Source: Psammoneis japonica (Eukaryota). From it: 64,000 nucleotides of DNA. Shown piece after piece: positions 7,568-45,319 of this stretch (positions within the stretch are counted from its first letter, which is position 1; every line of letters begins with the position of its first letter). The translations under genes and the position numbers were made by a program. The stretch lies in NCBI GenBank assembly GCA_008632985.1, contig QPGO01000131.1, forward strand, positions 124,001 to 188,000, given 5' to 3'. The notes beneath the pieces were generated by a model. The model did no database searches. It saw nothing but the letters and a program-made list of their open reading frames with translations, and was not told the origin of the DNA.

Positions 7568-7754
7568 TGTCAGTCCACCTGTCGCATGATGGACAGACTG
7601 CACACGGATGATGACCGGACCATTTGGACAGACGAGCAGATCTCTCTGAGATCTGCCTCTCACTTTCTCATCTGCTGGTGCTCGTGTTGTCACAGCCCCA
7701 GTGCTCAGGGAGTCTTTCACACCTCTGTCATCATTGACCTTCGGCATTCTGTCA
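7568..7754 (+). repeat. 3' LTR
   Basis: Direct repeat of 867-1053, followed by the TSD GAATG. Confidence 0.97.
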
Positions 7755-17000: not shown

Positions 17001-18651
17001 CTTGCATGTGTGTTCACTTTTTCCTGGAGCACCAATGCCGGGTGAGCTGTGCAGCACAAACAATCTGGGATGCAGGCAATGGGTGGTTGAATGGAAGACC
17101 TGCTGACCAAATGAACAAATTCTCAACAAGATCAAAATTGTTTGTAAAATGGGGCATTGCAAATTTGATGCATTGCACGGCCATCATCTGAAACATTGGC
17201 CACCACAAAGAAAGCACCAGATGTGTGATTTTAAAGAGGCAATCACAACAAAAATGTTCACAAATCAAATGACAGAACAAAGCACAGTTGACATTTGCAA
17301 AAATTGTGCATTGGCGGAAACTGCAATCACAAATGTGAAAATTGCTTGTGGCCATTGTTCGCCATTTTTCTCATCAAGAATCAAGCATGGAAACACACCA
17401 CACAGACAACATCTTTGCTTTGCAGGGGGGCTCACAGCAAGCTGACACACAAAATCTTGCTGTTTTTTCATGCTGCTGACAATGGCGCTGTTGGCGCTGC
17501 GATGCAGCCTTGCCTTTTTTCCCAGGAGCTGTGCATTCCATGTCTTCACACAGTTGTTCTTGAGGCTTTGTCTCAACTTTTTTGTGAAACAAATGTGGCT
17601 CCTGCCAAGGAGCATTGGAGATTGTCAAAAAGAAGCAAAAAGAAGCTCTCAGGGCTCTTTTTGAGGCTCTTTCAGTGGCGGCAGCCAGAGCACAGCCCCA
17701 AGAACCTGTGCACAAGTCCTGCGAAGCTCTTGTTGCTTTTTTTGCTCTCTGACACATGCAACTCACACCATCTGCATTGGTTTCACAGCAACAAAGCCTG
17801 AGCAAAGTTAAAAGGGGGGCACAAAAGCTCTTTCTCTGCTTGGCCTTTTTCAGCTCAGGCAGCACAAAGCTCAGTTTCTAGCTTCTTGTGCGAGAGAGTC
17901 TTGCAAAATGCTTTTTTGTTGCCTTTTTTGCTCTCTGACATGTGCAACTCACATTGTCCATTTTGGCATTGCAGCAAAAAAAAAAAAACCAACTGCAGAA
18001 TTTGCCAGCTTTTTAGAAAGAAAAGAGAAAAGCTGTCTTGCTGTCTCGTCTCTGCAGCTGCAGGCACGCCACCAGCTGAAGGCCAAAGCCCAGCTTCTTT
18101 GGCCGTGTGTTCCACCACTGCACCATGTGACAAGAGGTGATTGTTCTCTTCACCAAGGAGAACAGAGCACGACAGTCGAGTCCCCACAAGTCCGTTAAAG
18201 CATTTGTGATCGCGTGAAATTGGTCACCAGACTGTGTCATCCAAAAATTTCTACAGCAAGTGGGGATGCCAGCCCGCCCCACCGGCACACGGTAAAACCA
18301 AGCAGAGAGCAAAAAAATTTCGGGCTATGTACTGTATTAGTGGCCTAATGCAAGTACTAACTTATAAATATAAATGCATACTTCTTCATTCTTTTATTCA
18401 TTACTGACATCAGTATATTTGGTTAAAACAATTTTTGATACCCCTGTTAACGTCGAAATGCGTTGAATCATCGTTCCCGCAAAACTAAATTTTCAATTTG
18501 AATTCACACGATCAAAAACAATACCAGGTTCTCCGTAGGATTCTACAGGCATTGGCTGGTTGCGCGGGAAGACGGCGGCTTGAACGGATCACAACAGCAA
18601 CTCACAATTGGAAGTCAATCACTCTCTTCGCTCATTTTCGGCAGAGCAGAC

Positions 18652-21600
18652 ATGGCGACTGCAGACGACATCTCGGTTGACCCATCGCTCTTTATAGAGG
18701 ATGAGTCTGTATCAACGATCGCCGATAGCGTGAGAGCACCGTCCGTGAAAAGTGTACCTCCTATGGCTGCCGAACCACCCCAGGACGAAGAGCCTACGGA
18801 GCCGGAAAAGCCTGAAGAACCGCAAGAGCAAGCGGACGAGAAGGCTGCGGTAGAAGAGGAAGAGATGAAGGAACAAGTTACTGCTGAATCTGCAGCAGAA
18901 GAATGTGAGCAGGAGGAACATGCGGAAGAGAAATCTGCTTCGGTGGATGAAGAAGATCAAAAGGAGCCAGCAGAAGAAAATTCTGGAGCTGCAGTAGAAG
19001 AAGAGCCAAAGCACCAAGCAGAAGAGGCTGATGAAGAAGATCAGACAGAAGCAAAGTCTGCAGTAGTGGAAGAAGTAGAAGACCAGGAAGAGCCGCCAGC
19101 AGAAAAGTCTGTAGTAGTGGAAGAGGTGGAAGAACAGGAAGCGCCACCAGCAGAAAAGTCTGTAGTCGTGGACGAAATAGAAGAACAGGAAGATCCACCC
19201 GCAGACAAGTCTATAGTAGCGGAAGAAGTAGAAGAACAGGAAGAGCCACCAGCAGAAAAGTCTATAGTAGCGGAAGAAGTAGAAGAACAGGAAGAGCCAC
19301 CAGCAGAAAAGTCTATAGTAGCGGAAGAAGAAGGCCAGACAAATGAAAAAGGAAAGGAACAAGCAGAAGAGGAAACCTCGGTTGTGAACGTTGATACAAT
19401 TGACGATGAAGAGGAAGAAATTGACGTGGACGCACTCGATGCTGAATCCCAAGCAACTGCGTCAGTTATTACATCAGTCCAAGACGATGCTTCAGTCCGT
19501 CAAACTCTCACGCAAGCATCGTTTCATTCCATCTCATCCTCTATTCACGAATCTGTAAGGAACGAATCTTTTCACTCGGCTCCAAGCGCTGCATTCTACG
19601 ACTATGCCACCGATGACAAGACCCACAAGTCTTATCTTGACGAACCGGATAGCTCGGTGAATCCCTACGACACTGAAGATGATCCATCTTATTTGGCTGG
19701 GGCGAGGAACCGCGATGTTTCTGCTGAGGAAGAGTCGGCTTATGCCATTGACGGAGAGTTTGATAAGAGCGTGATTTCGGCTGAGGAGGGCGTTCGACCC
19801 AAGTCACCCGCACCCACCTCGTCTGATACTTCACAGGACTCTCCTCTGGGCCTAGGTGGAGCTGCAATTATTCCCTTGGACCCTGTCAAAAAACGCAAGC
19901 GCCGCTTAATTTTTGTCGGAGTCTTTTTGCTGGTGATTGTTGCCGTTGTCATTCCTATTGCAGTCATTTCGTTTGGAGGCAACGGCGGAGACTCATATGA
20001 TCCCAATCGGGCTCCACCTCCGACCGATCGAGAAAAGGAACTCAACGTCCTTTTCGCCGGCGTGTCGGATTCACACCTCCTGGAGAGATTGAACTCGCCG
20101 CAGAACTTGGCGAGGCAGTGGATTGCCAACATTGATCCATTGCAACTGTCGACTATTACTGATTCTCCCGATCGAATCATTCAGCGTTATATCTTGGCAG
20201 TCTTTTGGTATGCTACCAGTGGGGACTCGGCTTGGCTTAACAATGATTGGCTACAGGGCACCGATGAGTGTGCTGGATCCTTTTGGTTTGGTCTCAACTG
20301 TAACGAGATTGGTCAAGTGCGTGCCATAGTTTTTGGTAAGTTATTTGCAACGTTATATGCTTCTTCTGTTTATTGAACATTGCCACTTTCTAACCGCTCC
20401 TTGATGTTTCACTTGGCATTTCAGACAAAAACTCTCTCGAAGGAACTATTCCACGTGAAATTGGATATCTACCCGAACTGGAGAACATCATTCTCAAGAA
20501 CCACCCACGCCTCAAGGGACGCATTCCTGGAACCATTGGAAACCTATCAAAGTTGCGCCAATTGGGTCTCTACAACAACAAGCTCGAAGGTTTGATTCCC
20601 AAGCAGATCTACTCATTAACAGAACTGACCTACATCAATCTGTCGGGTAACATGCTGCAGGGAGGATTGGACATTGCCGTCGAGAATCTGGTCAAGCTGG
20701 AAAAGCTTATATTAGCGAACAACAAGTTGAGCGGTGCCTTTCCAGCTCGCTATCTCGGAAGGACAGCTCTTCGATTTCTTGATCTGAGCAACAACCATTT
20801 CGCAGGCCCCATCCCGGGCGCCATTGGAAGCGTTGACACACTTGAGTACATTAACTTGTCCTCTAACAATCTGGATGGGGAAATCCCCTTTCTGGGACAA
20901 CTTTCTAACCTCAGTAAGTTCCTCTGTAGCGAAATCAATGTAATACCGATGCATTGTGCATCGAGTAGCTCACTTTTACTGTTTTGTACTGATCTCAGAG
21001 TCGCTTATTGTGGGGGGAAACAACTTTTCCGGTTTTCTACCCCCAAGCATGTCGAAACTGAGGAATCTGACGTACGCGTCTTTCCAGGACAACGAATTCA
21101 CGGGAGAGCTTCCATCGGAATATAATACGCTGTCGAATCTGGGTATGTAGCGGATATTATGTAGCGGATATGTCTATTGGTGAAACATGTTATCGTCTTC
21201 GTTTTGTTTTACTCACCTTTCTCTCTCATCTTTTGTCATTTCAGAAACGCTCAATGTTGGCAACAACGATCTGTCCGGGCCAGTTCCAGATTACTCGGGG
21301 ATGACTTCGCTGGTCAATTTCCATGTCCACCAGAACCAGCTCGACGGACAGTTTCCTGAATTTCTCATTTTCCTTAAGAATCTAGGTGCGTTTTGTCGTT
21401 TCTCGGACTGTCTGAAGTATATGTTGTCTGTTTATTTCTCACACCTTTGCCCGTTGTCCTTCCTTATCCTTCAGAGGTCATTTTCCTCAGTTCGAACAAA
21501 TTTGTCGGCCCCATTCCGAACAGTCTTACGTTCTTGTCCGACTCGTTGAAGGGTCTGTATTTGTCGGATAATCAGTTTGACGGTCTTCTCTCATTGAGCC

Positions 21601-23239: not shown

Positions 23240-25061
23240 ATGTTATCGATTCGGTCGTCCCTTACGAGCACCGCTCGTCGTTGCGGTGTCCGTTTTGCCT
23301 CTTCAATGGGTGCTGATCTGAACAAACCTCTCACCGAGACGGATCCGGAGCTCTGCAAGCTTATTGAACAGGAGAAGGCTAGGCAGCGTTCGAGTTTGGT
23401 CTTGATTGCCTCAGAAAACTTCACATCGAGGTCTGTTCTTGACGCTCTTGGTTCCGTACTCTCCAATAAATACAGTGAAGGATACCCCGGTGCTCGTTAC
23501 TACGGCGGGAATGAGAATATTGATAGGGTTGAACTTCTCTGTCAAACAAGAGCGCTGGAGGCGTTTCATTTGGATCCAGAGGAATGGGGTGTGAATGTGC
23601 AGTCCCTTTCGGGATCCCCAGCAAACTTCCAGGTACGAGAAATATCCAGCTTTATTTGATACTTTGCTGAAAAGGTGGACTGGTGTCGGATCTTGCCGCA
23701 TCATGCATCATTGCCTTCTTTCTTCCGCGTCGTTTTCGGCCCATTCTTTCGATCGACCTCACGTAATGCTGACATCAGCATTGGGTTATCAGCGTGAACC
23801 ACGTCATCATCATTTGTCCTTCTCTTAATTGTTGTGACGTGGAAGAATCCTTTGTGTTCTTTTTGAACATATATCATAGTTGGACTAACTTCACTCGTTT
23901 CAATCCTTGCTATTTTTCACGGACCGTATTCTAACTCTTATGCAGGTGTACACGGCTCTTTTAGAGACCCATGATCGCATCCTTTCCCTCGATCTTCCTC
24001 ATGGCGGCCACCTTTCCCATGGCTACCAAACTGCCAACAAGAAGATCTCTATGGTCTCTCGGTACTTCGAGTCTATGCCATACCAGCTCGACCCAAGCAC
24101 TGGCGAAATTGACTACGATCAGATGGAAAAGAGCGCCGAGCTTTTCCGCCCAAAAATGATTGTTGCCGGAGCTTCTGCCTACTCTCGTCTCATTGATTAC
24201 GTTCGTATCCGCAAGATTGCTGATAGCGTCGGGGCTTACGTAATGGCTGACATGGCACACATTAGTGGTCTTATTTCCGCTGAAGTTATCCCGTCTTGCT
24301 TCCCGTACGCTGATGTAGTCACTACGACCACACACAAGAGTCTCCGCGGCCCCCGTGGTGCTATGATTTTCTACCGTAAGGGGCAAAAGGGCACAGACAA
24401 GAAAGGAAACCCGGTAATGTACGACCTTGAGAATAAGATTAATTTTGCGGTGTTCCCAGGACTACAAGGAGGACCGCACAATCACACAATTGGCGCGCTT
24501 TCGACATGCCTAAAGCAGGCAAACACGCCCGAGTTTGTAGAGTACCAAAAGCAGGTTCTCAAGAATTGTGCTCGCTTGGCAGACGAACTTACCAGCAAGG
24601 GCTACTCGCTTGTCAGTGGTGGCACGGACAACCACCTCGTTCTTGTAGACCTCAAGGCATCCCGTGGAATCGACGGTGCTCGTGTTGAACGCATTCTTGA
24701 GCTGGCTTGTATTGCAAGTAACAAGAACACCATTCCTGGAGACACCTCGGCGCTCACCCCTGGTGGCATTCGTATGGGTACACCAGCTCTTACTTCACGA
24801 GGTTTCGATGAAGATGACTTTGCTAAGGTTGCCGAGTTCTTTGACAGGGCGGTTGCAATTGCTGTCAAGCTTAAGAATACCGAGCACGGAAAGAAACTTA
24901 AAGGATTCAAGGAAATGTGCGCCGTTGGCCCTTCCGTCGACCCGGATCTTGTGCAGCTTCGAAAGGATGTATCAGAATTTGCTTGCTCATTCCCTACGGT
25001 AGGATTCACCGAGGACGAGATGTCTTTTGAAGGAGAGTACAACGTAGATTTCGTTGCATAA
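23240..25061 (+). CDS. SHMT: Serine hydroxymethyltransferase, probably mitochondrial; 2 exons
   Basis: [29 protein letters not shown] and the PLP-lysine motif [12 protein letters not shown]; Arg/Ser-rich presequence; intron 23633-23945. Confidence 0.97.
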
Positions 25062-26029
25062 AACTAGACGACTAGATGTGACGTATAAAGATGATAGTCG
25101 CGGAATGCACAAAAAGTCGTGTTTCATACTGAACGGGTTGAGAAAACCTCCGGACTCTGATCTCTGGTACATGTAGGTAGATGCCGGGTTGAATGCTTTA
25201 GAGCACCATGTGTAGCTTGGAAAGAATCGGACTCATGTTCTAGTATGCGCACAGGGTATGAGAGCACAGATGAAGATGTGATGTCATGGATCCTACTAAT
25301 TAAGATACCTGTGGATACCGATATGAATCGAATACAAGAAGGAAAAGAGAGCGTTTGTAAGGAATATAGTCATCACATGCCATGTGCCACAGAAGGTGTG
25401 ACGTGATTCCTTTGCTTGCTGGTTCATCTCATGCGCTCCCTCCTTTTGTTTCCAGCTACAGTACTGTTGGATGTGCACTATAAAGAATAAGAAAGATGCT
25501 ATTGGAAGATGCACGCCTCGTTTCTTCTCCATCGCTTTCTAACCATAAAAGAGTTTAAATGCAGTAAGAAATTGTGTCGAATTCCTGTGTAGCATGACAA
25601 GCAAAACGGATTAGAGTGAGCACGATCGTTTGGTCCTCTAGACTCTGCACGTCTATGGAAACAAGTTCTGCGTACATCCAAGACATCGTCGCCCCACCAC
25701 TTCTCAGACTTTCCACCCTTGTCTACCTTCTCTTTTCTGACGGAGTCTTCACGCCTGTTCGAAGATTGGGTACCTATCGTCCTGTTGGTAGCTGTCCCTG
25801 TTTGAGAAGACGCGCTAGCTGTCAATCTCTGAGCGCCTGCGATACCGCCACGTCTAGTTGTAAGGAAAAGTGCACCCCAAGTCATCGCTTTCGTTGTTTG
25901 CACGAGAAGGTACCTTTGTCAAATACACTCTACTCTAACCCAGCTATTCAACCTCAACAGCGAATCAGAACACTGCTGTCACGATTCTCGATCTTTATGT
26001 GGGATGAAAGTGCGGGCTTTCAGCTTTCA

Positions 26030-27398
26030 CTCGTCGATCCATCAGAACCTGACACAGTACAAATCCATGTACATTTCTACGTACGGCAAAGCTGGGCCCT
26101 TACAGCCAGATTAGATGCCCGGCAGCCTAGGGCCCTAATCCTTTGCGCTGCAGAGTCCACTTCTACAGCAGGACTGCTCCTGCTCTCTACTGCTCTCTAG
26201 AGTAGCTATAGTGCTACAGCAGCTAGTTGCAGTAGAGTAGAGAGCAGAGCACCCTCTCCACAGCAGAGTGGAGCCGAGCTGGAGTGGGTTCCACCAGAAA
26301 GCAGAGAGCGGCCAGAGCAGGTGTGACCAGCTCTGAGCTCCAGCTGGCTCAAAAGGGAAAGAGCAAGTTGGAGTGCAGGAGAAAATGGTGGGGACAGGCT
26401 CCCACAGTTGACAGTGTTTGACCCACCAGATCTCGATCACTTCAACACTTTCGAGTCCGTGTAGCATGTCCATGTCCGAATTTTGGATCTTGTCAGATCA
26501 AACGACGCGACACAAAGTGAACAACAACACGCTTTTTCCAATGCTGCACGTGTCAAAAGGATGAGTTCCGTCAATTGTGGAGTCACTGTGTGCCTGGTGT
26601 GAAACATCAAGGACGAAAACAAGAGTGCATCGCAAGTGAGGAGCCAGTCTGATGTGCGTGTGGTTGGTCTCTTGCAACTTTTTCTTCTCGTCGATCCATC
26701 AGAAATCAGAACCTGACAGCACAAATCCATGCACCGGTGCATTTCTACAGCACGCAACGCAAAGCTGATTCGAAAGAAGGCGTGCAGGTGGGGTCCTCTG
26801 CTGCCACTGCTGCTGCTCTCTCTCTCTCTCTCTCTCTGCTGGGTGTGTCTGCATTGTGACAGAGGGATGCCAGCCCAATCCTTTGCGCACAGAGTCCACT
26901 TCTACACCACTCTTGCGCTCTCTAGCTGCAGCACTGCAGCAGCCAGTGACAACAGAGTGGAGAGCAGAGCAGAGCAGAGCAGAGCACCCTTTCTACAGCA
27001 GAGTTGAGCCGAGCTAGAGCAGGTTCTACTGGAAAGCACTGGTAGAGAGTAGCTAGGTACGACTAGCTCTTGCTAGCTCAAAAGGGAAAGAGCAAGTTAG
27101 AGTACAGTAGAAAATGGTTGGGGACAGGCTCCTGCAGTTATTATAGTGCTTGACCCGCCAGATCTCGATCGCTTCAACACTTTCGAGTCCGTGTCAGCAT
27201 GTCCATGTCCGAATTTTGGATCTTGTTAGATCAAACGACAACGATATAAAGTGAACAACAACACGCTTTTTTTCCAATGCTACGCGCATCAAAAGGACGA
27301 GTTCTATCAATTGTGGAATCGCTGGGTACCTGGTGTGAAACATCATCGACAAAAACAAGAGTGTAAGGAGCTAATCTAATGTGCGTAAAGTTAGTCTC
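26030..27398. repeat. Non-coding tandem duplication (copy 1 ~26030-26672, copy 2 ~26687-27398)
   Basis: Shared blocks CTCGTCGATCCATCAGAA, AATCCTTTGCGC, GCTCAAAAGGGAAAGAGCAAGTT, AGCATGTCCATGTCCGAATTTTGGATCTTGT, CCTGGTGTGAAACATCA. Confidence 0.93.
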
Positions 27399-28413
27399 AC
27401 GGATCTTCTTTTTTAATTGTTTGCCCAACCGTGTTGCCCGTCGCCGAGTATCGTCAAGTTCTATATTATCGCTCTTTGAACAAATCGAATTCATGTATCT
27501 AAATGCAAGTTGTATGCAGCTGTTATGTCTTTTTCGTCGGATATTTGCTCTTGCCGCTTTTCTCATCTCGTACCGGCCATTTTATGTACATGTGTAATTG
27601 GTAGCATCTTTCGTCTAAATACAGTAGGAAACAATGTCAAAATCCTGCAAGAACGAAGAAAGTTGCGGTGTTGAGTTTGAAGCTCAAGAGGGTATCATAA
27701 TGACCGCAAACCAGCAATCAAAAGCACGTACCTCAACAATATTCTCGTTCCACCACTTGGGGCTATTGTCTTTGTCTCTTCCTGCATTAGAATTCTTACG
27801 TTCCGGCAACTTTGGAGATTGCGCAACAATCTCTTTCTTCTCGCGGCGTTCCGTCACGAATCGTTGCACTGTTTGTGCATGCTTCTGGGTTCCTTGTCGA
27901 AGTTCGAAAGCAAATTCACCCCACGTCATTCTGCTGTTGGCTCTTGGTCGGTATGGAAATTCAAGTGTGGTAACAATAGCTTCAAAGCTGCTCTTTGACA
28001 GGATGAAAATGATACTCTGGACTGCACCTTGTAGTGTTTTTCTTTGTGTGACGAACTCGTGACGAAAGCCTCCTTCAACATTCGATCCAACCCGGTTTGC
28101 TGGTGTTGTTCTTTTTCTTAATTTTTCTGGTTTTGATTTTTGATTCGTCAAAACTTGACACCGACCGTGACACGATACCAGAAAGGTGACGACAACATTT
28201 GAAGTATTTAATACTGAATATTTTATTCACAGACGGTAAATCGTACAGTAAAATCGATACATTACGAATCAAAACATTCACAATACTTCAAGCACATAGA
28301 CAAGCAATCCATCGCCCGCCACCAAAATCTCGCGGGCATCTCGCCAAGCTCCAAAGCAGTCATCGGCATTTGAGATGAGAAGAGAGCGGAGCTAACTCTC
28401 GTTTGCCGTCACC

Positions 28414-30164
28414 ATGTCGTTCCCTCCTCCACTGTCGGCTTCACCAGTTGCCTGTATCTTCCCCTTGATTAGCGATGCAAAGTCGGGCGGCAGAGACCCG
28501 TTGTCAAAGTTCAATTTGTCGCCTCAAGAAAAGTCCGCGTTACGAAGCGCCGAAGCCAATCCGCTAGAATACACACTTGCCGACGCTACCGAAGCACAGG
28601 CGTATATTTCGCTCTTGTTGAGAGTACTAGACGAGTGTGCTGGGCCTCGCGGTCCGTCTTCCAAGCTATCTCGGTTTACGGAGGTTTTGAGCGACAAAGA
28701 GGCGTCAGAAGTGTTGGGGATTGATCCGAAGGGGGTATTGACTCACTTTGCCGTGAGCAAGCTGTACGAAGTACTACATTGCCTCAAGGAAAAATCTGAA
28801 AAGTCCAGCGTCACGATACCTTCAATCTTTTACGACGATAATGGTGATCTCAGGATGGATTTGTGTAAGCCGTTTTATGCTATTTTGCATCTAGGAAAAG
28901 CGGGGGACAAGTTTGCTCAGCGAGGAACATCGGTATGTTTGTCGTTTATCCTCATGGCAGCGTGCGGTGCTTCCAAAGTCAAAACGAAATCCGCAAAGAT
29001 GCTCAATTCTAACACTGTTAAGGAACCGCTGCGAACATTGGTGTCGTGGATATCCTCAGAGCTACATTCGTTTGTCAGCTCATCTCTCTGGACGGCAACG
29101 CCGTCACTAGTCACAATTATGGACTCGTCGGACGCCCGAACCATGTTTGCCGACGACGGTGGCATTGCCTTTCTCTCTCGCCATTTACGCATGGGACACA
29201 AACCGGCGTCTCCTCGAACGGGAGTAGAAGCAAGCGGTGCTTCGGCCCAGCAAGTGTATGAACTTGTGTATTGCATGTGGACCATGACGTATGAGTGCAA
29301 CAGCTCGCCACTCGTGTCGGCTCACTTTGCTCGTGATGGTGCCGTGGCGGCGCTCGTGGATCTCGTGGGAAGTGCGCCTCGTGAAAAGGTGGTGCGTGTC
29401 GCCTTGTCGGCGTTGCGAAATCTAGCCACAGTCAAGCCCATGGAGGAGATATCCGATGCTTCCATCTCGAAACGACCCATTAGCGGAAGGTTCTTTCTGA
29501 ATGAAATGATTGGCTGTGGTCTCATTAAATCTGTAGACCTTTTGAAGGAACGTCAGTGGACTGACCCTGATATCCTTGAAGGTAAGAGGCAACGTGATTG
29601 CCATCACGCGCCCCTCTGTTGATACTGTTGGTTTCTTACAGTTACGTTTTGGTTTCCTATCCTAGACCTGGATGTGCTTTATCAGCTTCTTCACGAGAAC
29701 TACAAAGAAATGACTCGTTGGGATGTCTACAAGGCCGAAGTCGAATCGGGACACCTCCAATGGGGAATTACACACACGGAAAAGTTCTTCAAAGCCAATG
29801 CCAAGAATTTTGAAGGACCCGACGGCGACTTTGAGCTCGTAAAGAGCTTGATCAAGCTTGTCCTTTGTGATGACGACGACGTTATTTCAATTGCATGCTA
29901 TGATATCGGCGAATTTGTACGCCACTATCCGAATGGTCGGTCTATTATCAAGCGTCTGGGTGCCAAGGAGGTTGTAATGAAACTTATTGAGCATGAAAAT
30001 GACGAAGTAAGCCGACATGCATTGCAGTGTGTCTCCAAAATGATGGTTCAGAATTGGACGGTGAGTATACATATGTCGTTTAGACTTTTACTCGACTTTT
30101 ACTATACTGGTAAGTGTGGACAAGCTAATGCCGTTTCTTTGTCTCGTTCCAGGCTATCAACTGA
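28414..30164 (+). CDS. ATP6V1H: V-type H+-ATPase subunit H; 3 exons
   Basis: Q..YEL..CMW, REKVVRV.L..LRNL, W.DPDI.ED, Y.AEV.SG.L.W...H.EKFF..N, ACYDIGEFVRHYP.GR; introns 29582-29665 and 30061-30152. Confidence 0.93.
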
Positions 30165-32244: not shown

Positions 32245-32439
32245 GAAAGCCATTTTCTTAGTTGCTGAACATGACTCAAGGACAGTGCTGATGAGTCAAG
32301 TACAGTTGAAGGGAGAACCGTCATCTGACGACTTTGTGCAAAGACGAGCGTACCACACAGCGATAAGTGATTTTAAGGTAGACTCATTTTGATGGCCTTC
32401 TACAAGAGGCGCTATTTCTTCAGTTTCCTTTTGTGTAAC

Positions 32440-34600
32440 ACCGTCTTCTCTGTGTTGATCCAGTTTGAGTGAAGACTGATTCAAGAGCACACCAGCACTG
32501 ACATGGACTGTGCTCACCCCCCATGGTTGCACAGGTCCTGGGTTGGTCTTTTTGATGGGCCACATGCCTGGTGGTCATGTCCTCATGATGGCCCAGAAGC
32601 TGTGCCTGTTCTCAATTAGATGCCCAGCCTGGGTGACAGCATCTGTGTGATGCCAAAAGTCAGTGTCTGAGGTCATGCTCTGCCATGGCATCACAATGAG
32701 GCGATGTTGTCAATGGTGCATTGATGTGTCAGATCCAGCACTTTCATTTTCACATGAGCAGGGCTGTGTGCAGCACAGTGGCAGCTCCTGAGTTTGTGAG
32801 GCACAGGTGGGAGCTCTCTCACAGATGAAGAGAGTGCTGTGCAACATGCCATCAAATGAGCAACAAGATGACACAGCATGCAGATGAAGCTGTTGGCAGC
32901 TCCTTGGGCATGAAACTTGTGTTCAACATGGGCACAAATGCAGCGCAAAAGGGAATGATGACAAAAATCATGTTGACATGGCAGACAGTCAGTTGGTTGG
33001 AAACACAGCAACCCTGTTCTTTGTCACCACCAAGAGTGCAAAACCACCATCTGTGTTGACGTTTTCACATGTGTGCTGCAAATGTGATTGCTGAGAATGT
33101 CAACTCTGCAGACAGTCACTTGGTTGGAAACACAGCAACCCTGTTCTTTGTCACCACCAAGAGCGCAAAACCACAATCTGAGTTGACATTTTCACATGTG
33201 TGCTGCCAATGTGATTGCTGAGAATGTCAACTCTGTGGGACACTCAAGATCACCACAAGAGCAAATTTGGTTTTGCCTGCCTCAGAGAAGGGAAGCAGGT
33301 TTGGACTGGTGGCAGACAGGAGTGCACTGCAAAGCAACAACCCAAGGATGGGGGGTCACTGACATTGTGCAAAAATGGTGCAACACCACACAAACTGACA
33401 AGGTTGTGGGAGAGCAGATCCATGCTGGCACAAAACTGTTGAAAAAAGAAGGGTCAAAGGCAAGGATTGTGCGGAACGAAGAGGAAGGTTGCACAAAAGA
33501 ACAGGTCAGAGAAGAGGGCAGTTGTTGGTTTTCATGATGATCAGCTGCCACCCAGTTTTCAATGTGCACAGATGGATTTTTGGGCACTTCTAGAAATGCA
33601 AAATTTGCAGTTGACAGGCATGTGTCAGACAATTGTGCCTTGGCCACCAGGACCACTCACATTTGTTGAGTGTTGTTTTGAGAAAAACCGCGTTTTGGTT
33701 TTGCTTTTGGAAGCTTTGAGTGGTGCGGAGATGCCACAGCTGCTGAGCTGGCAAATGCTTGCTTCAGTGTGCCATGCTGTGCTCAAAAGGGACAGTCATC
33801 AAGGGAATGCCTTGATGTCACAAAGTCGCCATGTGTGGTTTGAAAAATGCAGGTTGCTCTTGGAAGTTGCACCTTGCTTCCATTGTTTGACACTTGGAGC
33901 TTCAGTCAGCTGCTGCTGACCCCAACAATGCATCAACTCTCAGCACAAACTTCAAAGAATGTGTTGTTGTTTGCACCATGGTGCTGGCCCCGCATTGGCC
34001 TCCTCCTCTTTTTGGTGCGCTGTGTGCATTGCTGTTGCTCTCTCTGAAGCCATCAGCAAGAATCCTTTACAGCCAGCATGTGTGCTGTTCAGCCGTGCTC
34101 TCAGGCACTCCAGAGGGCTTTGCAACAACTCCTCCAGCACTCCTTTTCAAATGCTGGTGGGCTGACACATGTCTGGATGAGCACCTCTGTTGGGGTGGTC
34201 CCAGATTGGTTGGACATTGCATGCTCTTGAGAGCCCCAATCAACATTCTCAATTTTTTCTGTGCTGGGAAGAAGTCTCCGTTCATCCACCCATCTTTGAA
34301 GCAACTTCTTCCCATCAACGGTGCAACACACATGATCAGCAGCCAGGAGGTTTGAGCTGGTCTTCCTCTCTCCTGTCTAATGGGGCCACATTTCACCCTG
34401 TGCCCATTGCTTGTCTCTGCACTTCTGACAATCTCTGCCAGCCTCTCCATTCTTGCTCCAGTGTCCACATCAGCTTCAATTGTGGGGGGCAGCCAAGCTC
34501 CTCACACCAGGACACAGGATTGTCAACACAGCCTTCTTTGACATCAATCATGGGCACCCACCACAGTGGAGACTGTGCACAGCCATTGACACCCCACTAA
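32440..34600. other. TpA-depleted degenerate repeat or pseudogene island of unknown family
   Basis: Near absence of TA and scarcity of CG; Tyr-free spurious ORFs; flanked by normal genes. Confidence 0.7.
32981..33235. repeat. 127-bp tandem duplication
   Basis: Units start at 32981 and 33108 (GCAGACAGTCA.TTGGTTGGAAACACAGCAACCC...GAGAATGTCAACTCTG) with about 6 mismatches. Confidence 0.95.
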
Positions 34601-34983: not shown

Positions 34984-35589
34984 CTACTCGGCTACTCTTC
35001 CCTGCTCGGTAATGATTCCCATATCTCTAAGTCTTGCTGTTGACAAGTAAGTAGATGAACCATCTTTATCAGTCGCATCTGGATCCACCATCATCGAATC
35101 CACTCGGCAAATGGCAACGTCGTGAGATCCACAGTCCACAAGGTCGCCTTGCAGCGTTAGTTTTAGGTAACTCGCACATTCTGGTAGCAACAAGAATGGT
35201 TTTTCCTCTTTGATCGTCCAAGGGAATCCCAGCTTTGCGCACTCTTGTTGCTTGTTTACATCTCGTCCTGAACATCCTCCCAACACTTTTACCAGAGGAG
35301 CATGCGGTTCCCTCAAAAGTTGCAGCACACCGGAGCCATTGCGAGAAAAGTTCTCGTGTGACACGGTTCCCTTGAAGAGACCAATAGACCATATACGATC
35401 TGGACGAATGCTTACGGGTGTTGCATAAGTTACAATATTCATGTTTGTTGTCTTCCCATCATGAGTAGCCAAGGAGTATGTGGGCACATCCAGAAGCGGT
35501 GGTGTGTCTGTGGGTTGAAGAAGTGCATCGACCAGAGCATCCGACAGAACCAGTATTAGTATAAGAGTAAGGTATACATACAGCGCCAT
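34984..35589 (-). CDS. Flavin reductase-like (FMN-binding split barrel) protein with N-terminal signal peptide
   Basis: NMNIVTYATPVSIRP, LG..SGRDVNK, L.C...GSHDV.ICRV pattern; hydrophobic N-terminus. Confidence 0.75.
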   Translation of the reverse strand: MALYVYLTLILILVLSDALVDALLQPTDTPPLLDVPTYSLATHDGKTTNMNIVTYATPVSIRPDRIWSIGLFKGTVSHENFSRNGSGVLQLLREPHAPLVKVLGGCSGRDVNKQQECAKLGFPWTIKEEKPFLLLPECASYLKLTLQGDLVDCGSHDVAICRVDSMMVDPDATDKDGSSTYLSTARLRDMGIITEQGRVAE

Positions 35590-35888
35590 GGTAAACGTCC
35601 GTTTTTACAAGTATGGAGATTATGAAGAGACCACTGTCACGTCGTGATGACGGCATGTGTGCCCATGGTGAATTTTTTTATTTCACGTGAGAGTGCTCCG
35701 ACTTCGCTGCTCGGGAACCAAAGTTGATCGTGACCGCCACGAAGACACACATACCTTTTCTACTGAATTTTAGACGTATAAGTTGTACTAAGAAGTTTCC
35801 ACGACAGCGCCGTATTGATTTCACGTGAAAAAGTCCAACTGCTGCGTGCGAAATTCCCACGAAACACAGCAAAGAAAAAGCATTCACC

Positions 35889-37550
35889 ATGGTACGTATG
35901 CCGTTTACAAGTGTTGTCAGAACAGACTGTACAGTGATTAGGTTCATCGAAGTTGTCTGTAATTGACTGGTTCACTTCTGCATGAGTTTGGTTGAGCGAT
36001 CGTGACGGACAATGTGCAAAACTATGTTCAACGTGTCGGCATGTTCTCATGCTTGCTGAATTCGGTATGTTTGATCGCAGGGTTCTACTTTATCGTTAGC
36101 CTTTACGTACTGCGCTTGCTCTGCAGTGGGCAGTCTATGTACATCTTGTTTTGGTTCGACAGCGCCAGGAACGACCGGTCGGAAGCGCTCCGTTCTGCTG
36201 CTAAGTGTGGCTATTGCCTTGGCACTGTGGTTTCAGTACTGGGTGGGACCGTCTGTTGTCAAGCACGAGGGTTGGATTTGGAAGACGTATCGTGCTATAC
36301 CTGGGTCGGGCAAAGCAGTCTATCACGCGTGGTACGATCCTTGTCAAAAGTATGCGGACGACGAGGACCTTTTAGTACAGTGTGCAGGAAACGCTGGAGT
36401 TTACCGACCCACTTTTTTGGCTAGTCTCTTTTTCGCCGCCTCGGCTGTGGGAACGAGGATTGTTCCAGGATTGAACCGAGAAGCGTGGCCTGCAAAGTAT
36501 GCCGTTTTTGGTATCTTGGTTCTGGTATCCATGTTCATCCCCAACGATCCGCTCTTTAGCAGCTTTTACTTGTGGGTGGCGCGGCTTGGAGCTACTTTCT
36601 TTGTGGTGTTGCAGCAGATCATTTTGATTGACGTCGCATACAACTGGAACGAGGATTGGGTCGAGAAGTCAAATGCGTGCGACCGAGTTTCCTTTGGAAG
36701 TGGACAGGGATGGTTGAGGGCTATTATTGCAACCTGTGTCGCATTCTATAGCGCCTCGCTGGTTGGAATTTCGCTCTTGTATTCCTGGTTTGACGACTGC
36801 CCAGAGAACAAAGCTGTCATTACCTTGACTCTGTTGGGTGTGATTGCTCTTACCGCGATCCAATTGTCGGGTACCGAGGGAAGTTTGCTCACATCGTCCG
36901 TCATTAGCATGTACGTGACGTATCTTGCGTATTCGATCTGTTCCAAGAACCCAAATCCCGAATGCAATCCGCATCTTGGACACAATGATGTTTGGGGAAT
37001 TATCGTTGGACTTACCTTGACAGCCATTAGTCTTGCGTGGACGGGATGGAGCTGGACTGCCGAACAACGTCTAAACACCGAAGGGTAAGAGAAGCGCGAC
37101 TTTTGATGCATTTGCTGTTTTGCGTTCTTTCAAGATGCTCACCATCTTCCTGCATTCCGCGACATTTTCTCCTGCAGTGTTCAGTCCACGAGGACAATGA
37201 CTCCCCAGCAGCTTCAGAGACCCACCAATCCCGAGGGCCTCGGGGTTCCATTCTTGGATCCGGAAGATCAGCCTCCCGCAGGAGTTGTTGCCGACACGGA
37301 CACGACGCCTTATACGGGAACAGAGCTTTGGAAGCTTAACGTTGTCATGGCTCTCATTTCGTGCTGGGTGGCCATGACTTTAACGGGATGGGGCACACTG
37401 GAGTCTGTGGAAGACACACCGACTGCGGCAAATCCTACTGTAGGACGGTTCAATATGGCCATGCTTGGCATCAGTCAGTGGATTGTGATTCTGTTGTACG
37501 TCTGGACTCTGTTGGCGCCGCGTCTCTTTCCGGATCGGGACTTTTCTTGA
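35889..37550 (+). CDS. SERINC: Serine incorporator (Serinc/TDE/TMS) membrane protein; 3 coding exons
   Basis: C.GNAGVYR, LQQIILIDVAYNWNE.W, GSLLTSSVIS.Y..YL, NP..ECNP, LY.WTLLAP.LFPDRDFS; introns 35892-36080 and 37085-37177. Confidence 0.92.
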
Positions 37551-37639
37551 GCTTATCATCAGGCCGTTAGGTAAAAGCCTCTGTACATTGTTTTAAAATA
37601 GGTTGGTTGCATATTTCAAAACACAGTCATTACAAATTA

Positions 37640-39160
37640 CTATTTTGATTCTGTCCATGCGATGTCAATCGGTGACGAGAAGTTCACATCCGAAAGCGCC
37701 CCTTGCGACTTCTTCTTTTTCAGCCCGAACATAGATAATACGTTGCCGACATTCTGAACAAAGACAATGCCGACCAAAGTCACTATCGCTGCGGTTCCTG
37801 CGATCTTCTTCGCCTTTTGAAATCGATCAGGACCGTAGCCTTCAACGTACCAATTCCAAGGCATACCTTCGGCCGGTCTTTGGATTCTCTTTTCCGCAAC
37901 CACCTCGGCAATTCCGGGTTTCATTCTATTCACTTCATAGCGATGATATCTAAGTTCTTTTCGTAAGATTCGACGTAGCGAATCGTCAATTTCGTCAGGC
38001 ACTCTAGAGGGTGGTTCGGCGGCGGCTTCCTTTTCTGGCTCCTCTTTTCCCGTCTGATCAGCTTCACTGGTCCGGACGGGATTGATTCCATTCGATTCCC
38101 GAACGGTTGGCGCTGATGCTGCAGGAGAATTCGCTTGAACAGCTTCAGGTTGCCGTTCTTCGTGTATTGTATAAGAATCACCGTAGCCTCCAGCAGTTGT
38201 TTCCCCCTCATCTTCTGCATCAGCAAGCTCCATCCGGTCCACAAATGCAGTGCTATCATCGTCCGTACTGTGCTGGGTCATTGCTATAACTTCTTCATCT
38301 TCAGCAGAGACAAAGACAGAACCACTTTCAACTTTTGTGACGTCTATCGAAGGATCTAGTCTCGCATCAGGCTCTTCGGGATATATCTCTGAGGGGCTGC
38401 TTCCTTCGTCGTCCTCCGAAGGCTCTACTTCATTGACGCTTTCCGCATTATCAGGCTGAGCGATCTCTGAAACAAACTCATCCATCTCTAAATTTTCTAC
38501 AACTTGTTGCGGTGAGCTAGATCTCGATACCTCGACTTCTGCAAAGGGAACGTCTTCGTCGTTTCTCTCTTCAGCGGAATCTTCTTCGTCGCTAAGGTCA
38601 ATGAAACTTTCCTCTGAAACTGCATCAGAGTCATCATCTGACTCTTCAAGAGTGGCGCCACTACTCAGATCTACATTGACGCTTTCTTTATTTTCTTCTT
38701 CTGAACCTTCTTCGAACCACGACTCTGCATCTACCTCATGCTGACGCCTATTCACCGGTTCTTGCCAATCGTCCTCGTCTTCCTCACTTTCTCGCGTTGC
38801 GTCAAAAGACTCAGATTCATCATCCTCTTGTTCTTCTTCACTCCCAACGCACATGGCTTCATCTTTATCGTCCAATTCCTCTGTGTCGACTGTTTCTTCC
38901 CCTTCCATGCTTGTTGTATTTATGTCACTCATTTGTTCGCTGCCGCCTCTTGGCGGGAAATGCATTTCAGAGACGAACATATCCTTCTTTGCAATCAAGA
39001 ATGGTCTTGGACGTGGAAGCCAAGAAGAGATGCTCGGATGTGAAGATGCCAATATTCTGGTTGAACTTAAAAGTAGAGTCCCTGCAATCATTATAAACGC
39101 AACAGGCAGAGACGTGGGCCATCTGGAACAACAAGTTCCACGTGATTTTGCGTTTGCCAT
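37640..39160 (-). CDS. Hypothetical acidic protein with signal-like segment, RGG motif and C-terminal hydrophobic helix
   Basis: Long open frame, Asp/Glu-rich, normal dinucleotide content; start codon uncertain. Confidence 0.7.
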   Translation of the reverse strand: MANAKSRGTCCSRWPTSLPVAFIMIAGTLLLSSTRILASSHPSISSWLPRPRPFLIAKKDMFVSEMHFPPRGGSEQMSDINTTSMEGEETVDTEELDDKDEAMCVGSEEEQEDDESESFDATRESEEDEDDWQEPVNRRQHEVDAESWFEEGSEEENKESVNVDLSSGATLEESDDDSDAVSEESFIDLSDEEDSAEERNDEDVPFAEVEVSRSSSPQQVVENLEMDEFVSEIAQPDNAESVNEVEPSEDDEGSSPSEIYPEEPDARLDPSIDVTKVESGSVFVSAEDEEVIAMTQHSTDDDSTAFVDRMELADAEDEGETTAGGYGDSYTIHEERQPEAVQANSPAASAPTVRESNGINPVRTSEADQTGKEEPEKEAAAEPPSRVPDEIDDSLRRILRKELRYHRYEVNRMKPGIAEVVAEKRIQRPAEGMPWNWYVEGYGPDRFQKAKKIAGTAAIVTLVGIVFVQNVGNVLSMFGLKKKKSQGALSDVNFSSPIDIAWTESK

Positions 39161-40004
39161 TCTTGTATGGAGAAAAAAATTCTGACACCTATCGAAAAGA
39201 AGAGAATGAAAACACTGTTTACCAAAAGTAAACCCTAGGAGTCCACGACGAACACAATCATTTAGCACGCTGCAGTCTAATCAGCGGCATGCAGTCGGCG
39301 GGAAGTCAACGACATATACTCACTCACCATGTTGATCATCATCCACAACGCCTCCCGCCGGCCCTCCGCCTCCCGCTCCCGCGCCGCACGATGCGCGCGT
39401 TTTAGCCGTCTGTGACGTACGGTACTTACGTGATTTTCAACGTAGACAGCAGTACCGACTGTCCGACACCCGTCATTGAATGCGCCTTCAGCCAAAGTCA
39501 CAAGAATGAATTTTGATTCATTCACGAGTTGCACATCGCGTACGTCAGCAATCCCAACACACGACACACGTTTGGTGGCGCCACGAGTGATGACCAAGCA
39601 TCTTGAAGCGTGCTGGGTCATGTTGTGGTGGTGGCTCAAGACTTGCTCAGCGCGTTCACTTTTTGCACCTTCTGCTCACTCATTGAGGGCCTAATACGTG
39701 GGCTACATTTTGTACGTGGGTACGTGTCCATCGGATCACAATCTACGTGTCGTGACATCATAGTCACTACTGAAAGTCGGCTGACACTGTTATAGCAACC
39801 AACTGCTCATAATATCGACAAGCATCGTTGAACGCAAAGGTGTGTTGAAACTATCTTCCGACTTGCGATGGCAAAGCTGTTGCGAGTGGGTCGCTGTTGT
39901 TCTGGAATCGGCAACTAGGAATAAAAATGGAGCGGTCGCCTTGTGTTTTTGCGTGCTGACACTTTTCTCTGCGTTCTTTACTTGACTGCAGGTTAAATCT
40001 TGCG

Positions 40005-41983
40005 ATGTGCACTAATCCGCAGCTAAAGTCCAAGGGACAACTAAAGAAGCCTTCACAGCGAAGGAGCAAGTCATCAAGACGCCACGTAGCAAAACCCAAC
40101 ATTCAATCGATAGGAGCGAATGGGTAGACTTCGCGGCTTTCCTTGTTCCGGCTCTCTTTTGTGGGGTGACTAATGTCGTCCCGATATATCTGACCGCCGT
40201 AGCTCGTATGCTTGCGGCCCACACTTTTCTGACGCTTCACTACATCTTCGTCGACAAAGACAACTACAACATGAAGCTTAGCGAGCGACAGCTGAAACGA
40301 GAGAAGAAGGATTACCTCGTCGGACCAATCTTGCATATGTGGGCGCAAGTCGTTCTTCAGCTCATCTTCCCAAGTATGTTTTTCACGAGTAACGATCAAA
40401 TTGCGAACTGTGGGTGGAACACCTTCCTTGCCCACGTTGCCATCGTCGAGCCGCTCTACTACTTCGCTCACGTCTGGCTTCACAAGCCTGAAGTAATGAA
40501 AGTGATGCACAGCTTTCATCATATGTCTGTGAAGACTCTTCCTTCCACATCTTTGGTACAAGACTTTAAGGAACACTTCATCTACATTGCCACTTTTGGC
40601 CCAGCCTTTCTCGTTCCCTTTCTCGTCACGGGGCAGAATCATTGGGTGGTGATCTGCTTATACTTGGTTCTATTCGACGTTATCAACGCCTATGGACACA
40701 CAAATATCTCCATCAACAACTGGGTTTTCGAGAGCAAGTGGTCGCCTATGCGTTACCTCTTCTACACGCCCGAGTTTCACCTTGGACATCACAAATACTA
40801 CAACAACAATTTTGGTCTTTTCATGCCAATCTTTGATCACATGTTCGGCACTTACAGAGAATACAAGATCCCCGGCCCATCCAAACAAGCCTTGCTCCCG
40901 AGCGAACAGCAGAACTTTGTCTTTATTGGGCACAACGGTGGACTCGGTCACCTAATGACTTGTCCCGAGTGGTCAGTTTACAACGTTTACGACCAGTACC
41001 GCAGGACGTGGCTGCCCATTCAAGTTGAGTTTCTCCTTGTTGCGGCTGTCAGTGCAGTTGCGCGTTTGTTTGCCAAGTCCTACAAGGTTTCGCGCTACTT
41101 GGTCAACGAGATGTACATTGGTCGCATCATTTGCGTGCTTCGTACCCCCATTGACTACATCAACCCAAAGCGTTATGACGCTGTCAACAAGGACATTGTG
41201 AAGCTTATCGAGAACGAGCACAAGGCATGCGGTACCCGCTACTTCGGTCTGGGGAACCTTAACAAGATGAAGCAGCTCAACGACGGCGGAACCGAAGTAG
41301 TACGCCTTGTGAAGGAAAACGAATACCTCAAAGATAAGAACATCCGGATCTGGACCGGAGACACAATGACTGCGGCTTCCATCTATCATCAGATCGCTAG
41401 CATTCCCAACCTGAAGAAGATTTTTTACATTGGGGCAAGCGGAAAGATTGGAAAGGCTGTGGTGCAGCTTTTGGTTGAGAAGGATATCGAAGTTATGATC
41501 TACTCCAGGTATATGAGCACGGTTCACCCAAACATCAAGTACACTCAAGATCTCAGTGACATGGCGGGGTACAAGCACGTGATTATCGGAAAGCTGTTGA
41601 GTCCCAAGGTCTACCAGAAAGCGGTCAGCACCATTCGTAACAACAAGGCACAGTCTGAAACCAAGTACCTTCTTGACTACACGGTTCCTTTCATCCCATT
41701 GAATCTTGGTAAAGACATTCATCACATACAAATCGGTGTGTTGAGCGTTGGCGCCAAGAAGAACTCCACCAAGCCGTTGCTGCGAGGACATTTCGATGTG
41801 TGCATGGGCCACAATGAGAATCAAATCTACCCTTGCCATGCAGGTTGCATTGTGAACATGATGGAGCAGAGGGAAACGGATGAGATCGGCGAAATCAACG
41901 TGGACGACATGTTGAGACTATGGGAGGTGGCAAAAAGCTACGGACTCAAGAACAGAACACCCGAAATCGCCATTGAAGGGTGA
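40005..41983 (+). CDS. CER1/CER3 (WAX2)-like protein: fatty-acid hydroxylase domain plus C-terminal SDR-like domain; intronless
   Basis: His boxes HVWLH, HSFHH, HLGHH; N.YGH.N; GL.MP.FD..FGT; LGNLNK..QLN.GG; GDTMTAA; GASGKIG; CHAG. Frame is open from 40016; the ATG at 40005 needs one restored base. Confidence 0.88.
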
Positions 41984-42929
41984 GCTACTTCTTCACAGCC
42001 AACGCCAAGCACACTCCTGTTACGCTTAGTCAGGAAAGACATCACAAATTTTCAATAGAAACAAGGCCAGAAGAGAACGCTTCTTGCTACACGCAACTAA
42101 GTACACAGAAATACATTTGAGTAATAATAGCATAAAACCATTTATCATTTTCTACTGTCGTAGTTCAGAAGAGTAGAGAAAGAACGATATTTTGTTATCG
42201 TACTTAGACGAAAAGAACTCTCTCAGCCCCGCTACCAGTACAAACTCTGATTAGCATGTTCCCCCGCGGTAAAAATCATCTAGTGCACAAGCTAATGTAG
42301 ACTCAAACTATTAATCTCTACTTACAGCCTAGAGAGAGAGAGAGAGAAGGAGTGCTCTAGAGAACGCATCTGCACGCCATCAGGCATGAACATAGTGACG
42401 AAGGTAGGTCTGCGCAGATGTCTACCGTACCTACCTAGAGTTGATTCATGCTCCACTCAGAAATCTTTATGCAGCAGGGAGTGCCAGGTACAAGTAGAGG
42501 ATTGGCGGCGGCTGCTGCGGATTTCAAGCTTTCGGATGTTGCTGAGTGAGCCACTCTAGCAACACCAGGAAAGACTCAACGAAGGGTGGTCACAAGAAGA
42601 AATGCGAACCTGTGGTTTGATGACCAACGAGGTTAAAGATCAACGATGGACTGAAGTTGCCACCGTCGCGAGCTGCTTATATAGGTTTTGTGGATTCTCT
42701 TCGTCTATGATAAAACATTTAAGCTAGTGGAGTAAAGGTTTTTTCGTTGAGTACGAATAGGTGCCTACAGAAAATGCTTTTCTTCACCTCGGAGCCGCAA
42801 GACCATGACAGGCGTGCATCTAGCTCTAGTAGAGAGTGACAAAGAGTTTTGGCTTCAAGACATGCTGCGGTAGGGCGAAGAACTCAAGAAATCATACTTT
42901 AGAGATAACTGCTGCACTTAAATCGAGTC

Positions 42930-43140
42930 CACTACTCTAGAGTAGGCCCTCTCTACTCTCTAGAGTAGAGCTCTCTAAGCTACTTTCTACTCTAGCTAGT
43001 AGAGCTCTACTCTAGAGCTACCGGTAGTATCTACTCTCTACTCTAGAGCTAGAGTAGAGAGTGGAGTACCGGTGGAGAGTACTACATACAGCTAGCTAGA
43101 GAGCGGTACCGGGCGGTAGATAGAGAATACCGGTATGAGA
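42930..43140. repeat. TA-rich palindromic low-complexity tract
   Basis: Concatenated TACTCTA, TAGAGTA, TAGCTA, TACCGGTA, CTCTAGAG. Confidence 0.85.
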
Positions 43141-43459
43141 AAGAGTATTGTAGAGTGCGACAAGACACGACACACGGCAAGACGATGACACCAGCATTCG
43201 CTCGGAAATTATCTCAACCAATCAAAACGCTCTAAACCACTGTGTGCGAACAGCGAACTCTTCCAAAAAAAGGCGGGAAAAGCAGCCACGACAAGATGTC
43301 TCGTGTTCTTCACGGGCGGGGTGTGAATAACTGTTACACGCATTCCCAAGATCCGAGGAAGACACAACAGGTGTCACCAGTGCGAACGCATTCTCCCATT
43401 TCAGGAGCTCTTCACAGATCGCATCACGTTCCACAAGTTGATCGGGAACGAAATGAACC

Positions 43460-45105: not shown

Positions 45106-45319
45106 GATGCATGCGATGACACTACAGTATTGTAGCATCAAGTTTTAGTCGAAGTATTCAGTTAGAAATGACGTGTCATATTGCGGAGGTACGTACGTAT
45201 CTACGTGGTACAAACTACGCATTCGATCGTGGCGCGATGACCACCACACAAAATCAGCATCACCTCAAACTTTGCAGATGACTTCGTGTTGATTTATTAA
45301 AACTAACACAAAGATAAAC

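Follow-up and report, generated by a model that had tools for sequence, protein, structure and literature searches.

A 64,000-nucleotide stretch of nuclear DNA from the diatom Psammoneis japonica (referred to here at its full length as the window) carries long, nearly intron-free open reading frames (ORFs), including those for serine hydroxymethyltransferase, V-ATPase subunit H, a histidine phosphatase and a CER1-like fatty-acid hydroxylase. We describe here a tandem duplication that occupies the spacer between two small paralogous genes of the window, designated L and R, and in which one repeat period is almost devoid of TA dinucleotide steps. The locus had been singled out in a sequence-only reading, in which a duplication of about 1.4 kb was proposed to have been targeted by a TA-directed mutator, with a TA-poor centre, outer edges that keep TA, and an intensity of mutation that peaks centrally.

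A tandem duplication with one TA-depleted period

Local alignment pairs positions 26017–26686 with 26671–27413, with firm homology between the two copies listed in Table 1, and the tandem duplication of about 1.4 kb is thus real. Its period is approximately 735 bp, and repeat families are spaced 720–739 apart. We refer to the left and right parts of the unit as A and B, the order at the locus being A1 B1 A2 B2. The outer A1 lies directly upstream of gene L and the outer B2 directly downstream of gene R, and the inner B1 and A2 together form the part that is distant from both genes. The A2 part is about 100 bases longer than A1, within 26760–26880, and the additional DNA includes a (CT)n run. 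No further copy of the unit was found within the window, a Pfam search at the default cut-off gave no family for six ORFs in or overlapping the unit (one match of 0.0024 falls below the gathering score), and the 25000–28500 region gave no Rfam match up to E = 0.1.

The centre of the duplication (26251–26985) contains four TA steps in 735 bases, an observed/expected ratio (o/e) of 0.10, at a GC content of 0.53. The outer 662 bases contain 44, with 18 in the 234 bases of A1 (26017–26250, o/e 1.30) and 26 in the 428 bases of B2 (26986–27413, o/e 0.79), and the flanking DNA on the two sides has 37 and 31 TA steps per 717 bases (o/e 0.56–0.70). The TA-poor centre and the TA-retaining edges that had been noticed from the sequence are thus both present, as are the five example pairs quoted in support of them, each at its given place.

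Comparison of the two copies by position shows that the contrast is strictly partitioned. The copies mismatch at 97 bases, 35 of which are positions where TA in one copy faces CA or TG in the other. All 11 such bases in the A part have TA in copy 1 (26058–26238) and all 24 in the B part have it in copy 2 (26994–27393), the first of these pairs being 26259/26994. A perfect partition of 35 sites by a single switch has a chance of about 2e-9, and no informative site of reverse polarity was seen outside the tract. The inner-copy state at the 44 outer TA steps is CA at 16, TG at 14, CG at two, TA at three, a gap at six and another dinucleotide at three, so that TA>CA, TA>TG and occasional TA>CG changes all occur, as had been proposed. 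Among the 38 outer TA steps that can be aligned, 32 are CA, TG or CG in the inner copy and three keep TA; aligned TA steps therefore differ at 35 of 38, in comparison with 114 of 540 for all other dinucleotides. The changes are mixed with respect to strand, with 17 CA and 14 TG outcomes falling into 17 runs (16.4 expected, z = 0.24), and the two kinds are interleaved on either side of the junction. The three TA steps that survive in the tract and are common to the outer copy are all in the context CTAC, and the fourth, at 26462, is GTAG. Background substitutions in the B part amount to about 3%, and the copies also differ by insertions and deletions.

Both edges of the depleted tract are steps. 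On the left, eight TA steps are intact at 26198–26238 and informative sites are changed from 26259 onwards; on the right, changed sites continue through 26970 and TA is intact from 26994 onwards, such that the edges are resolved to 21 and 24 bases respectively. The proposition that intensity peaks centrally is not borne out, and depletion instead follows a step function of one period with edges placed within 25 bp. In length the tract equals one repeat period, and A1 and B2, the spared parts, together amount to exactly one intact unit. Moreover, the edges share a single interval of the unit of about 20 bases (26239–26258 and 26972–26993), beside the (GAGCA)n run. We estimate the chance that independent ends would coincide this well as about 0.03 (an interval of ~20 bases in a 735-base unit), although as a single post hoc observation this counts as a hint.

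We compared the window with contigs of two public sequencing runs, X1 and X2. Contigs of a public run cross both edges of the tract, at 26138–26459 (one other letter) and 26917–27222 (none). The mean word depths of these edge contigs are 51 and 64, as compared with 57 and 60 for flanking contigs, and 27 and 29 for the two arms of a bubble at 27506–27625; depth is not copy number, and the values are no more than a hint of a mosaic that is present on more than one haplotype. Among the contigs listed, none spans the junction near 26686. Contig cover is absent over 26009–27052 in X2 and over 26705–26791 in X1, and we attach no meaning to these gaps. The X1 contigs differ from the window at full depth at 26102, 26129, 26425, 26461, 26507, 26528–26529 and 27467. 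These differences include an A>G change at 26129 (TA>TG, in the outer A1), CA>TG at 26528–26529 and two one-base insertions, and they could be either strain variation or assembly errors.

The flanking genes L and R have normal TA content. Their protein products both start with MTWG and end with SYCI, and in the alignment an intron lies at an equal place in each. For gene L, an X2 contig joins 25583 to 25675, with CT..AC ends; for gene R, the intron has GT..AG ends on the minus strand, and X2 contigs have loose ends at 27646 and 27731. A Pfam search with the first exons of both genes gave no family.

Table 1. Coordinates of the duplication, its depleted tract, the flanking genes and the TA-free DNA of the window
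Feature	Position	Strand	Basis or composition
Copy 1 (A1 + B1)	26030–26670		Local alignment, repeat families
Inter-copy junction, T-rich, weak likeness to both outer ends	26671–26687		Alignment ends
Copy 2 (A2 + B2)	26688–27398		Local alignment, repeat families
TA-depleted tract (B1 + A2), one repeat period, 4 TA	26239–26993		CA/TG o/e 1.5–1.6, GC 0.53
Outer part A1, TA-retaining, 18 TA	26017–26238		TA counts
Outer part B2, TA-retaining, 26 TA	26994–27413		TA counts
Short (GAGTA/GAGCA) run, left edge of tract	26235–26251		Sequence reading
(GAGCA)5 run, right edge of tract, homologous to 26235–26251	26962–26986		Sequence reading
(CT)n microsatellite, A2 only, within insertion block relative to A1	26817–26837		Alignment
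Gene L, small two-exon gene, 79 amino acids, paralogue of gene R	25557–25885	-	ATG 25885; intron 25585–25675
Gene R, small two-exon gene, 75 amino acids, paralogue of gene L	27617–27929	-	ATG 27929; intron 27645–27731
TA-free block	1–~18200		52 TA in 18000 bases; TA o/e 0.04; CA and TG 1.7–1.8; CpG 0.35
Copia-like pol, three frame-shifted pieces	3417–7398	+	Long terminal repeat (LTR)-like repeats 866–1059, 7567–7760
TA-free block	32437–34597		3 TA; TA o/e 0.03; CA and TG 1.8–2.0; CpG 0.14
TA-free block, running off window	62288–64000		3 TA; TA o/e 0.03; CA and TG 1.8; CpG 0.20
Background	35000–50000		646 TA in 15001 bases; TA o/e 0.63; CA and TG 1.15; CpG 0.96

TA-free blocks and the direction of change

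TA is somewhat below expectation over most of the window, and three large blocks are nearly free of it (Table 1). Outside these blocks, long TA-free gaps in succession (224, 284 and 157 bases) occur at the tract alone. The composition of the tract is like that of these mutated blocks and unlike the background: its TA o/e of 0.10 compares with block values of 0.03–0.04 and a background value of 0.63, and CA and TG o/e values are 1.5–1.6 for the tract, 1.7–2.0 for the blocks and 1.15 for the background. Within the B part, CG>TG/CA changes number six in the inner B1 and two in the outer B2, a weak hint of CpG decay in the tract.

The first block contains a copia-like element with gag-pre-integrase and SH3 domains, for which 76 long homologues are available, and 20 of these (P0121–P0140) were compared with the window using tblastn. 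Tyrosine is encoded by TAY, cysteine by TGY and histidine by CAY. Opposite 1002 homologue tyrosines, the window has cysteine at 449, histidine at 332, phenylalanine at 109 and tyrosine at just 19, and tyrosine accounts for 0.15% of the aligned window residues as compared with 3.7% in the homologues. Because homologue tyrosine faces cysteine or histidine (781 of 1002), which serves as a protein-level outgroup, TA is the older state and TG or CA the derived one in the transposon block of this genome, and a TA-removing process has indeed acted within the window. Homologue arginine stands opposite histidine at 217 and cysteine at 183 positions, which shows that CpG decay occurred alongside TA loss in the copia element. 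LTR-like repeats in TA-free block DNA differ by CA-versus-TG discordances at 4 of 194 (the LTR pair 866–1059/7567–7760), 18 of 472 and 8 of 431 aligned bases, and the copies were therefore hit independently after their separation.

Among the few TA steps left in the blocks TTAA is prominent, accounting for 18 of 54, as compared with 32 of 1042 TA steps in the 35000–61000 region; TTAC/GTAA are the next to survive, and ATAT, ATAG/CTAT and ATAC/GTAT are almost gone. The mutator thus seems to be influenced by the wider sequence context, disfavouring TA steps that are preceded by T or followed by A. Each block holds internal repeats, and the blocks end a few hundred bases from ORFs, at ~18200 for an ORF start at 18502 and at 32437 for an ORF end at 32244. 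No real Pfam match was found for 31 ORFs of the other TA-free DNA, and for the 32437–34597 block we found neither clear terminal repeats at its bounds nor a family. In the TA-free blocks TGA is the sole possible stop codon, and long meaningless ORFs are common there.

For the duplication, it is very likely that the polarity is also TA>CA/TG. This rests on composition and parsimony, the homologue tyrosine outgroup being one that covers the transposon block. A 28-base exact pattern common to both copies was present in none of the metagenome stretches searched (0 matches), and a protein-guided scan with the V-ATPase H ORF gave 120 pattern matches, none of which is a relative. The closest protein relatives of this ORF are from centric diatoms (Cyclotella, Coscinodiscus, Detonula and Thalassiosira), and because the best of them are only 50–53% identical, an alignable orthologous spacer is out of reach. 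The unit was also compared with the spacers that adjoin the paralogues L and R, and these did not align with it, scoring 23–24 as compared with shuffle maxima of 29–34.

A coding tandem repeat with a unit of about 51 bases and several copies is located at 19046–19333, inside an acidic ORF (18502–20376). It retains TA, with 19 steps in the 497 bases of 18944–19440, and short coding repeats such as this one are not depleted.

Comparison with known hypermutation systems

The nearest known system is the TpA-only AT>GC hypermutation of the chlorarachniophyte Bigelowiella natans, reported in a 2026 preprint (10.64898/2026.01.13.699255). In two integrated viral regions of that genome, 230 of 231 new mutations are A>G or T>C changes, each at a TpA step, TpA-poor and CpA+TpG-rich clusters are found genome-wide with an enrichment in reverse-transcriptase and transposase domains, and the authors propose a DNA-acting adenine deaminase (10.64898/2026.01.13.699255). 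The two systems have several properties in common. The changes fall on TpA, with TpG or CpA as the product according to which strand is struck (in the duplication, 32 of the 35 differing steps are CA, TG or CG), they are confined to delimited regions beside normally mutating DNA, and there is long-term TpA loss with a gain of CpA and TpG, with reverse-transcriptase and transposase genes among those depleted in Bigelowiella. There are also clear differences. The host described here is a diatom, and thus a stramenopile, rather than a chlorarachniophyte; TA o/e is 0.03–0.10, as compared with 0.45 for the Bigelowiella viral region; the tract measures 0.75 kb and has edges placed within 25 bases, as compared with regions of 25–186 kb; and what is struck is host DNA, a low-copy spacer that bears no signature of a virus or transposon, although the copia-like element does match a foreign target. 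Ongoing mutation is seen in Bigelowiella, whereas here the process is known from sequence alone. The TA>CG double changes and the sparing of TTAA are two further features of the window, neither of which was met in the preprint text available.

Repeat-induced point mutation (RIP) of fungi (PMC2621366, PMC7296669) is similar in its dense transitions at one dinucleotide, its degradation of repeats and transposons, and its sharp limits, and here too a duplication of less than 1 kb lies at the site. The chemistry is different, however, in that RIP changes CpA to TpA by C>T and the changes here are from TpA to CpA or TpG by A>G. RIP alters both copies (PMC2621366), whereas at each of the 35 bases described here the inner copy alone is changed and one unit is left intact. 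The TpA excess typical of RIP is not seen, and the repeats and blocks instead have TA o/e values of 0.03–0.10 with an excess of CA and TG.

Other processes have points of resemblance too. RNA edited by ADAR and copied into DNA would leave fossil A>G changes in retroelement copies, on one strand only. The tract is unlike this in that CA and TG are mixed without runs (17 and 14) and the target is not a retroelement, although A>G change at an A preceded by T (U) is a likeness to ADAR-type A-to-I editing, the 5' U preference of which is stated in the Discussion of the Bigelowiella preprint (10.64898/2026.01.13.699255). Decay of methylated CpG (CG>TG/CA) yields the same CA and TG products, and CpG decay does accompany TA loss in the blocks, but it is unable to turn TA into CA or TG, and at 32 sites the partner copy has TA and not CG. 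Break-associated deaminase clusters of the kataegis type produce strand-coordinated runs that switch at the breakpoint. No such coordination is seen in the tract, where the 17 runs match the 16.4 expected. Our literature search, as judged from titles and abstracts, found no report of a TA-loss signature in diatoms.

Possible origins of the depleted tract

The explanation that we tentatively favour, and which we consider possible rather than probable, is that the tract was mutated in situ as a sharply bounded, silenced, gene-distal period. The spacer of ~735 bp between the small paralogous genes was duplicated in tandem, and mutation would have followed in place, by the same TpA-directed A:T>G:C hypermutation that struck the transposon blocks. 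Most likely the adenine of TpA would be deaminated on either DNA strand, as is proposed for the Bigelowiella signature, and the resulting inosine read as G, a hit on one strand yielding TpG and a hit on the opposite strand CpA. The extra gene-distal period may have become a silenced domain like the transposon blocks, perhaps with CpG methylation, with both of its edges set by one sequence point of the unit near the (GAGCA)n run, which occurs once per copy. If so, the two copies of that point would bound exactly one period, which would spare both the promoter-side DNA adjoining gene L and the downstream DNA adjoining gene R. The mutator would then track the silenced state and not homology as such. 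Mutation of a silenced period in place is favoured by the joint loss of TA and CpG in the blocks, by CpG decay that is weakly raised within the tract, and by the observation that the blocks stop short of genes.

Several points weigh against this explanation. The silenced status of the tract is something that we infer, and the proposed role of the (GAGCA)n run as a boundary is a guess made after seeing the data. An edge fixed to ~20 bases at near-complete TA loss is not usual for spreading silencing, and a gene-distal position alone is insufficient, given that the window has further intergenic DNA that shows no depletion; duplication may yet be what triggers the process. The CpG evidence is slight, since the outer A1 is likewise low in CpG (o/e 0.40) and the contrast between B1 and B2 is just six to two. 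The surviving CTAC and GTAG contexts are just moderately resistant in the transposon blocks, where it is TTAA that survives, and the searches for an outgroup found none with which to polarise the 32 sites of the duplication. Finally, the B part has four steps at which CA in one copy faces TG in its partner (26285–26286, 26295–26296, 26403–26404 and 26551–26552, with their copy 2 partners). The same 399 bases contain five other plain transitions and eight transversions, a plain substitution level that the discordant steps exceed. They require hits in both copies, from TA or CG, and B2 may not have been wholly spared; to call the outer edges untouched may be too strong. Among other candidates, we rejected a single exposed strand at a break or slipped loop on the grounds that there is no strand coordination, the mixed strands also argue against RNA editing fixed via complementary DNA, and, as a matter of judgement, we also rejected the idea that selection by itself preserved the 44 outer TA steps in full.

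In the sequence-only reading the duplication itself is enough to be targeted. A homology-sensing mechanism analogous to RIP would recognise duplicated DNA and direct the TA mutator there, most strongly around the junction. It is true that the only depleted island beyond the three blocks sits in the only sizeable non-coding duplication of the 64 kb, that a transposon was identified in just one of the three TA-free blocks and internal repeats in all of them, and that, for any chosen point of the unit, the struck segment is the one flanked by its two copies. A linker between closely spaced repeats is mutated in Neurospora, via a heterochromatin-linked pathway. However, the copies are equally duplicated and yet one alone is depleted at each position (35 of 35 sites), the edges are sharp with no gradient between them, the coding repeat at 19046–19333 keeps its TA (though it is much shorter), and the hypermutated giant-virus (nucleocytoplasmic large DNA virus) region of Bigelowiella is single-copy. 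With a single case in which the outer halves are equally duplicated and not depleted, the suggestion that a non-coding duplication is enough for targeting is not demonstrated, and we regard a homology-sensing trigger as unlikely. A one-period patch introduced by recombination, which we judge to be rather unlikely, would by itself account for the edges. TA would have been stripped from a circular or separate copy, either extrachromosomal or silenced elsewhere, which then entered by a single homologous crossover or ectopic conversion; one crossover yields a tandem duplication with exactly one foreign period and both edges at one point of the unit. The length of the tract, the common edge interval (chance ~0.03) and the step-like edges are as expected, the microsatellite beside the edges is a plausible crossover point, and the TA-free retrotransposon, which has a DNA copy made outside the chromosome, fits as well. 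Two rare steps are needed, though, namely a circle with a joint between the B end and the A start and its integration, and near-complete TA loss (32 of 38) on both strands would be required during the separate phase. Mutation prior to integration also does not predict the higher CpG decay in the inner B1 (six versus two), there is no second copy of the unit in the window, and in Bigelowiella mutation occurs in place.

A reversal of polarity, in which the unit was TA-poor originally and its outer parts gained TA by C>T change at CpA/TpG as in fungal RIP, is very improbable. The TA o/e of A1 (1.30) is above that of the flanks (0.56–0.70), and that of B2 (0.79) slightly so; the CA forms in copy 2 make up a perfect (GAGCA)5 run, which could be the older state; and the searches yielded no outgroup for the duplication. 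Nevertheless, two processes would be needed, erasure of TA and then its restoration, together with the same two sharp edges, and the only process demonstrated in the window runs in the opposite direction, from tyrosine to cysteine or histidine. A clear TA excess of the RIP type, accompanied by loss of CA and TG, is seen nowhere in the window (the top 1-kb interval, 42001–43000, has an o/e of 0.95), and one copy is changed per position, whereas RIP changes both (PMC2621366). An assembly artefact, whether by fusion of two haplotypes or by false duplication, is very unlikely. The junction is unbridged by the listed contigs, from 26705 to 26791, and X1 contigs carry several single-base differences from the window here, but contigs of a public run span both edges with one and no other letters. 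The depths of these contigs are flank-like and not bubble-like (a hint only, depth not being copy number), and the B part has the insertions, deletions and background substitutions of real old copies.

The earlier observation is thus confirmed and its interpretation partly supported. Within the literature searched, a near-total TpA-removing process has so far been reported in one chlorarachniophyte preprint only, and the same signature is now seen in a diatom, where it is much deeper. The duplication pairs each mutated site with an unmutated twin, which is beyond what the transposon blocks offer, and the twin pairs give the spectrum (CA 16, TG 14, CG 2), the completeness (32 of 38), the lack of strand bias and the sharpness of the edges. 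Host DNA with no sign of a transposon or virus can be struck while one unit stays intact. It is conceivable, although we consider it unlikely, that diatoms have an adenine-directed counterpart of RIP that senses duplication or an extrachromosomal past and edits exactly one period between two copies of one point, always sparing one unit in its gene context. If this were true, a host duplication of 0.7 kb would have been neutralised with its neighbouring genes unharmed. A trigger of either kind, duplication or an extrachromosomal past, would bear on repeat control in diatoms, on the survival of gene duplicates, and on the fate of transgenes and episomes in diatom engineering.

The 42001–43000 interval is the most TA-rich 1 kb of the window and has a TA/AT ratio of 1.4, and a short inverted repeat is located just past it, at 43020–43073.

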